NCBI RefSeq assembly: GCF_003334815.1
Contig: NZ_QOWO01000124.1
Strand: one strand, 5' to 3'
DNA from: Escherichia coli
GTDB taxonomy: Bacteria; Pseudomonadota; Gammaproteobacteria; Enterobacterales; Enterobacteriaceae
Length of the DNA: 665 nucleotides
Position 1 is the stretch's first letter. Each line of letters opens with the position of its first letter. Shown one piece after another: positions 1-665 of the stretch. The notes beneath the pieces are model-generated. The model was given only the letters and a program-made list of their open reading frames with translations. It searched no databases and was not told the origin of the DNA. The position numbers and the translations under genes are program-made.

Positions 1-23
1 GGTAATGACTCCAACTTATTGAT
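1..23 (-). repeat. IS1 right terminal inverted repeat (IRR), about 23 bp, imperfect
   Basis: The + strand 1..23 is GGTAATGACTCCAACTTATTGAT, matching the known IS1 IRR. The partner IRL (recalled as GGTGATGCTGCCAACTTACTGAT) is outside the window, so the pairing cannot be confirmed here. Confidence 0.88.
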
Positions 24-24
24 A
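12..24 (-). promoter_or_regulatory. Putative IHF binding site inside the IS1 terminal repeat
   Basis: The minus strand of 12..24 reads TATCAATAAGTTG, an exact fit to the IHF core consensus WATCAANNNNTTR. IHF binding at IS1 ends is established knowledge. This is a motif match only. Confidence 0.55.
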
Positions 25-519
25 GTGTTTTATGTTCAGATAATGCCCGATGACTTTGTCATGCAGCTCCACCGATTTTGAGAACGACAGCAACTTCCGT
101 CCCAGCCGTGCCAGGTGCTGCCTCAGATTCAGGTTATGCCGCTCAATTCGCTGCGTATATCGCTTGCTGATTACGTGCAGCTTTCCCTTCAGGCGGGATT
201 CATACAGCGGCCAGCCATCCGTCATCCATATCACCACGTCAAAGGGTGACAGCAGGCTCATAAGACGCCCCAGCGTCGCCATAGTGCGTTCACCGAATAC
301 GTGCGCAACAACCGTCTTCCGGAGACTGTCATACGCGTAAAACAGCCAGCGCTGGCGCGATTTAGCCCCGACATAGCCCCACTGTTCGTCCATTTCCGCG
401 CAGACGATGACGTCACTGCCCGGCTGTATGCGCGAGGTTACCGACTGCGGCCTGAGTTTTTTAAGTGACGTAAAATCGTGTTGAGGCCAACGCCCATAAT
501 GCGGGCAGTTGCCCGGCAT
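16..519 (-). CDS. insB: IS1 InsB (insB' frame; catalytic C-terminal part of the InsAB' transposase), 167 codons
   Basis: The six-frame ORF 16..519 (minus) translates to [16 protein letters not shown]...[15 protein letters not shown], which I recognise as IS1 InsB. ATG is at 517..519 (reverse complement of cat) and the TAA stop at 16..18. The stop lies inside the terminal repeat, as is typical for IS1. The frame is -1 relative to insA. Confidence 0.93.
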
Positions 520-665
520 CCAACGCCATTCATGGCCATATCAATGATTTTCTGGTGCGTACCGGGTTGAGAAGCGGTGTAAGTGAACTGCAGTTGCCAT
601 GTTTTACGGCAGTGAGAGCAGAGATAGCGCTGATGTCCGGCGGTGCTTTTGCCGTTACGCACCAC
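16..665 (-). CDS. insAB': InsAB' fusion transposase made by the -1 frameshift at 456..462 (insA frame 665..~457, then insB' frame down to the stop at 16..18). N-terminally truncated by the window edge.
   Basis: Follows from the insA and insB frames and the intervening A6C motif seen in the sequence, combined with the established IS1 expression mechanism. The fusion is not a contiguous ORF, so it does not appear in the six-frame track. Confidence 0.8.
438..665 (-). CDS. insA: IS1 InsA (zinc-finger/HTH DNA-binding protein, transposition inhibitor), 5'-truncated by the window edge. 75 of 91 codons are present.
   Basis: The ORF 438..665 (minus) translates to [75 protein letters not shown], matching residues 17-91 of IS1 InsA. 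The TAA stop is at 438..440. The apparent start at 663..665 is an in-frame GTG (Val) at the window edge, not the true start. The CSHC half of the zinc-finger motif is encoded at 609..620. Confidence 0.93.
456..462 (-). other. A6C slippery heptamer (AAAAAAC), the programmed -1 ribosomal frameshift site that joins insA to insB' to give the InsAB' transposase
   Basis: The minus strand reads TTAAAAAACTCAGG across 465..452. In the insA frame this is Leu-Lys-Asn-Ser, and in the -1 frame Leu-Lys-Lys-Leu, which is the LKKL of InsB. The insA stop follows 16 nt downstream at 438..440. Codon phase confirms insB is -1 relative to insA (insA codon top positions are 2 mod 3, insB 0 mod 3). Confidence 0.9.

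Follow-up and report, generated by a model that had tools for sequence, protein, structure and literature searches.

Introduction

The stretch of DNA analysed in this study, 665 bases in length and hereafter called the window, raises two linked questions: to which element does it belong, and why does it begin and stop exactly where it does? IS1 flanks Tn9 and resistance regions such as the R100 r-determinant. A composite-transposon context of this kind, like the target site and its duplication, had been judged unreadable from the window in the initial annotation, and correctly so, as the record has no sequence outside the element. The analysis presented here identifies the window as bases 104-768 of an IS1A-type element read on the opposite strand, and leads us to interpret its end at base 665 as most probably (with a probability that we would put at roughly three in four) the end of a short-read contig into which repeated IS1 copies were collapsed.

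Identity and right terminus of the element

Comparison with the annotated IS1A of Escherichia coli K-12 MG1655 ('insertion sequence:IS1A', NC_000913.3, 19796-20563) revealed that the window corresponds to IS1 bases 104-768 in reverse complement, with 663 of the 665 bases being the same. Many E. coli copies are 100% identical to it over positions 1-665 and, among the matches listed, all are annotated as "IS1-like element IS1A family transposase"; the exact-match copies in other records are 768 bp long. The source record itself totals 665 bases, all of them IS1, with zero flanking bases, and thus leaves no room for the initially proposed extension by about 1 kb on either side. These comparisons (100% matches to annotated copies of the IS1A family, two differences in 665 bases from K-12 IS1A, and the length of the source record) bear out the initial placement of the window wholly within IS1 as well as the claim that it contains no flanking DNA. 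The window belongs to an IS1A-type IS1 and represents an isoform that differs from K-12 IS1A by two substitutions, and no plausible refutation of its IS1 identity remains.

This IS1 is a canonical and already known one, a common insertion sequence of enterobacteria. By megablast, 4,971 of the 5,426 complete E. coli genomes contain a match to the window, the median number of places being 11; matches were likewise obtained in at least 5,000 plasmids of enterobacteria, three IncF plasmids among them being 100% identical. The IS1 family (ISfinder IS1; NF033558; PF03811, PF12759, PF03400) is characterised by 23-bp imperfect terminal repeats, overlapping frames with a -1 frameshift, a transposase combining zinc-finger, helix-turn-helix and DDE parts, and target duplications of 8-9 bp. 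The element to which the window belongs is a member without divergence, the frames and the transposase being seen in the window, one of the two repeats lying within its range and the duplications being observed in related full copies.

The right terminus was defined on four exact-match copies fetched together with 1.5 kb of flanking sequence, representing two unrelated chromosomal sites, one plasmid and one repeat of the uxuR-yjiC site. To the left of window base 1, the fetched copies from unrelated sites have 0-1 bases in common; to its right, copies of one variant share 768 bases. Since independent insertions stop resembling each other exactly at this point, the element ends at base 1, the outermost position of its right terminal inverted repeat (IRR, positions 1-23, no strand assigned), a 23-nt arm that is 78% (18/23) complementary to the arm ending at base 768 of the full copy. 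The divergence of flanks at base 1, taken together with this 23-nt inverted repeat, agrees with the terminal position initially proposed for that base; likewise, the proposed orientation, with the IRR at base 1 and the genes on the minus strand, is supported by the boundary and by the frame map.

The left inverted repeat (IRL) is seen in every full-length exact-match copy examined, and only the IRR lies within the range of the window. The end of the IRL had been expected about 103 bp past position 665, and the distance is exactly 103 bp (768 - 665) in every full-length exact-match copy. Codons 1-16 of insA are contained in the missing 103 bp, as is the IRL. Target duplications in the related full copies are of 9 bp in nine cases and of 8 bp in seven, the others having none.

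Coding content and expression

All coding features lie on the minus strand. The window carries most of the insAB' transframe transposase gene (16-665), i.e., residues 17-232 of 232, its stop codon being located at 16-18 and its first 16 codons outside, as well as codons 17-91 of the 91-codon insA repressor gene (438-665, stop codon at 438-440), the 5' end of which is cut by the window. The last three bases of the window constitute codon 17 (GTG) of insA, as anticipated by the earlier statement that the window ends within this gene. The slippery motif AAAAAAC (A6C, 456-462, minus strand, IS1 coordinates 307-313), read as TTA AAA AAC in the insA frame, is the -1 frameshift site that joins insA to insB'. 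Reconstruction of this frameshift yielded an uninterrupted 232-aa InsAB' that reaches the insB stop at 16-18 and equals the K-12 protein except for S208L; in RefSeq, this gene is annotated in two pieces that are joined, with the label 'programmed frameshift'. By the conventional annotation, insB is an ORF of 167 codons at 16-519 (minus strand, ATG at 517-519, stop at 16-18), and insB1 of K-12 is annotated at the same relative position; according to published work, the insB product is made only as the C-terminal part of InsAB'. The part of the InsA protein present in the window is identical to K-12 InsA1. The insA stop and the complete insB frame are present and intact, as are the A6C site and the DDE domain.

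Profile searches provided a consistent picture of domain content. The window-encoded part of InsB scored 143.7 bits against the NCBIfam model NF033558 for IS1 family transposase (cut-off 100), and the window part of insA scored 35.5 bits against NF050000, the IS1/IS1595 zinc-binding domain (cut-off 28). With the protein completed from an exact-match copy, Pfam matches were obtained to PF03811 Zn_ribbon_InsA (E = 3e-19), PF12759 HTH_Tnp_IS1 (E = 3.3e-28) and PF03400 DDE_Tnp_IS1 (E = 1.3e-76, model positions 1-131 of 131). The helix-turn-helix domain (PF12759), common to InsA and InsAB', occupies positions 457-587 on the minus strand (residues 43-86), and the DDE catalytic domain (PF03400) positions 19-411 on the same strand (InsAB' residues 102-232, coordinates derived from the frame map). 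As the window codes for residues 17-232, the zinc ribbon is represented in it by its second half only, and the first CxxC is absent. The integrity of the DDE residues follows from the fact that every Asp and Glu is the same as in K-12 InsAB' (S208L being the sole change) in combination with the full-length Pfam match. A search of PDB with InsAB' returned no chain at E <= 0.01.

A plus-strand ATG ORF of 96 codons (50-340) was considered and rejected as a gene: it runs antisense within insB of an element that is 99.7% conserved, and it is unannotated in the records examined. Early mutagenesis work on IS1 reportedly found that only insA and insB are needed.

In structure, in the IRR, in the A6C site and in the InsA part, K-12 MG1655 IS1A (insA1/insB1) is like the window, and 231 of the 232 residues of InsAB' are the same. 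The two elements differ by base 92 (A here, G in K-12), which changes Ser208 of InsAB' to Leu, and by base 507 (A here, T in K-12), which is synonymous in insA (Thr69). The latter substitution changes Ser to Cys at codon 5 of the stand-alone insB frame, a codon that lies upstream of the frameshift site and, thus, outside InsAB'. The S208L form of InsAB' corresponds to RefSeq WP_223216371.1, annotated in many genomes. Copies of the element encoding this protein (in ETEC H10407, in strains 504838, D9 and CE0021a, and on plasmid pSTEC316) are 100% the same as the window in DNA over its whole length; unlike the window, they are complete at 768 bp and have flanks, being located at uxuR-yjiC, at nhaR-rpsT, next to ybcM (strain 504838) and on an IncFIA/IncFII plasmid.

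The mechanism by which IS1 works is established knowledge. Transcription of insA and insB starts from a weak promoter at the left end, outside the window. Ordinary translation produces InsA, a zinc-finger and helix-turn-helix protein by which both inverted repeats are bound and transcription as well as transposition is repressed, and a rare -1 ribosomal slip on AAAAAAC produces the 232-aa DDE transposase InsAB'. The latter acts on the two 23-bp ends, and 8 or 9 bp of target DNA are duplicated when the 768-bp element inserts. Repression by InsA via both ends, synthesis of InsAB' by a rare -1 frameshift at A6C and target duplications of 8 or 9 bp have all been described (PMC12428005).

The IS1 promoter overlaps the IRL (PMC12428005) and is therefore missing from the window, the IRL being located outside it. 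A promoter scan of the window yielded 0 sites, in agreement with this published left-end location (PMC12428005). A terminator scan gave one site (plus strand, 628-642) vs. 0.3 expected, which is not meaningful, and a search of Rfam on both strands at E <= 1 gave no match, frameshift element families included. Folding of 96 nt from the slippery site downstream gave a minimum free energy of -27.5 kcal/mol (z = -0.30 vs. shuffles), which lends no support to an unusually stable stimulatory hairpin as seen by a folding method blind to pseudoknots; a pseudoknot has been raised as a possibility at the IS1 frameshift (PMC12428005).

Two variants of the isoform and the end of the sequence at base 665

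Among the exact-match copies, the isoform is represented by two full-length variants, the only differences being base 666 (T/C, synonymous in InsA Gly16) and base 741 (G/A), with the last base of the window (665) being the last one common to both. Neither allele at base 666 is rare, both being common: a 61-mer centred on this base matched exactly with T in 741 and with C in 7,688 E. coli records. As these counts add up to more than the approximately 8,300 matching records, both alleles must be present together in at least about 120 replicons. Queries with the full 768-bp variants returned 52 perfect-match records each, with 10 complete E. coli chromosome records in both lists. Strain CE0021a provides an example of such coexistence: its uxuR-yjiC intergenic copy and its copy at the nhaR-rpsT locus have 0 bases in common to the left of window base 1, and from base 1 onward they agree for exactly 665 bases.

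These observations are the basis of our preferred interpretation. At the left edge of the window, the unique flanks of different IS1 copies would diverge; the right edge would directly precede a position at which IS1 copies residing together in one genome or sample have either T or C. A de Bruijn-graph assembler would be expected to emit the maximal stretch shared by such copies as a separate short contig, and the window corresponds to exactly that stretch. If so, the source can be deduced from these edges to have contained two or more IS1 copies with different bases at position 666. Breaks within IS1 are common in public assemblies, with 40 of the 124 IS1 matches in the fetched public contigs being cut by the end of a locus. 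Counting against the collapsed-repeat interpretation, none of the contigs seen to break within IS1 among the fetched public loci breaks at 665/666. It also counts against it that genomes with many copies usually hold other isoforms as well (e.g., with the K-12 bases at 92 and 507), which would split the assembly graph further, so that the interpretation requires source copies uniform over positions 1-665.

An IS1 copy that is truly truncated would look identical from within the window, and this also counts against the collapse of repeats, the window alone not separating a truncated copy from a complete one. According to this alternative, which we consider quite unlikely, the left 103 bp (the IRL, the promoter and the start of insA) would have been lost from a genuine remnant by deletion or by insertion of another element, the contig ending at the junction. 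Partial internal copies of IS1 do exist among the fetched loci (e.g., L055, L068 and L087), but none of those seen ends at 665. A remnant of this kind would normally be assembled with unique flank on at least one side, whereas both edges of the window are devoid of any non-IS1 base. In addition, the right edge falls one base before the only variant difference within the next 75 bases, a position that a deletion with a random endpoint would hit only by chance. If the window nevertheless did represent a remnant, the copy would be unable to move or to express its genes by itself. It is the coincidence of the two edges with the IS terminus and with the first variant-specific site that makes us favour a collapsed-repeat contig over a truncated element.

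The same two edges bear on another, similarly unlikely (if slightly less so) explanation, by which the window would be an arbitrary or technical fragment, e.g., an amplicon from PCR or typing, a sequence derived from reads and trimmed, or a metagenome contig cut short by low coverage. Short metagenome contigs that end within IS1 at assorted positions are common indeed; the location of both ends at biologically defined boundaries would, by comparison, be rare under random fragmentation, and an amplicon would be expected to start at a primer site inside the element rather than exactly at its last base. Finally, it is highly improbable that the record is a real free-standing IS1 fragment, either a copy truncated at a recombination junction between IS1 variants or a copy in a non-enterobacterial host; we regard as equally improbable the separate idea that S208L in the DDE domain could alter transposition activity relative to K-12 IS1A.

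Collapse of repeated copies remains the most likely origin of the window. As a probable repeat stub of an abundant and well-studied insertion sequence it holds no host, target or cargo information, and as such it matters as housekeeping only. The edges of IS-only contigs of this type are informative, and reads or an assembly graph, in conjunction with the difference at base 666, may be used to place the IS1 copies of the source.

Genomic locations of the isoform and of related copies

In complete E. coli genomes, the T666 variant is found mostly in the uxuR-yjiC intergenic region with a 9-bp duplication, ATATAATTC, and the C666 variant mostly at the nhaR-rpsT locus, where it adjoins a truncated fimbrial gene. 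The exact isoform is also present on IncFIA/IncFII plasmids such as pSTEC316. At the uxuR-yjiC site, the same duplication is common to ETEC H10407, D9 and CE0021a (loci L002, L004 and L109, each at 1492-1500 and 2269-2277), and yjiC adjoins the element in most records of the 100% match list; this conservation of duplication and neighbour suggests that the uxuR-yjiC insertion is old and common to many E. coli lineages.

The nhaR-rpsT locus is the one occupied by IS1A in K-12. One full-length variant of the window isoform resides there with the same rpsT-side flank: a comparison of the CE0021a copy (L110:1440-2330, NZ_CP119006.1) with K-12 IS1A (L005:736-1624) revealed an identical flank on the rpsT side (IRL) vs. 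a wholly different flank on the IRR side, which in CE0021a is the truncated fimbrial gene. A target duplication is absent in both CE0021a and K-12. From sequence comparison, the difference in flanks suggests that DNA next to IS1 was deleted or rearranged in one of the lineages. The exact-match copy on pSTEC316 (L003:1492-1500, 2269-2277) also has no target duplication, with AACAAAACC on one side vs. CCCATGTCG on the other, as would be expected from recombination between IS1 copies or from an adjacent deletion.

A broader survey employed a 170-base exact pattern (window positions 496-665) in a scan of species-representative genomes, viral contigs and metagenome contigs, in which 30, 32 and 41 stretches, respectively, were found. 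Exact matches in representative genomes carry the labels Citrobacter, Enterobacter, Kluyvera and, in one case, Haemophilus sputorum, in addition to an Enterobacter MAG. The Haemophilus case is a contig of 1,319 bases (NZ_AFNK01000018.1, labelled H. sputorum CCUG 13788; L006:1-570), the non-IS1 part of which matches, with 100% identity, the dqlB toxin region of E. coli conjugative plasmids ~37-68 kb in size. In view of this match, the occurrence of IS1 "in Haemophilus" is probably due to contamination or to an enterobacterial plasmid and does not reflect a wider host range. By its known occurrences, the isoform places the host of the window most likely within the Enterobacteriaceae, with E. coli as the probable species.

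In three loci of Citrobacter amalonaticus (L017, L024 and L025) and one of Enterobacter chuandaensis (L032), the last 170 bases of the window are exact, after which the alignment runs out of register, with 281-358 mismatches when ungapped; in L032, the element is split into two pieces by blast. These four are rearranged, indel-bearing or mosaic copies of IS1.

Among the metagenome contigs, 15 end at window coordinates 470-473 (L070, L073, L076, L078, L080, L083, L085, L086, L089-L091, L095, L102, L103 and L107). All of them have QZL*/QZM* accessions, and the 4-base span begins at a distance of 8 bases from the slippery T6/A6 run (456-462). The recurrence of this break suggests a variant or an assembler artefact in the QZL*/QZM* samples. 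The exact 170-base end of the window was also found in 32 stretches of IMG/VR viral contigs (L036-L067), which points to IS1 copies in prophage or phage-plasmid sequences of that collection.
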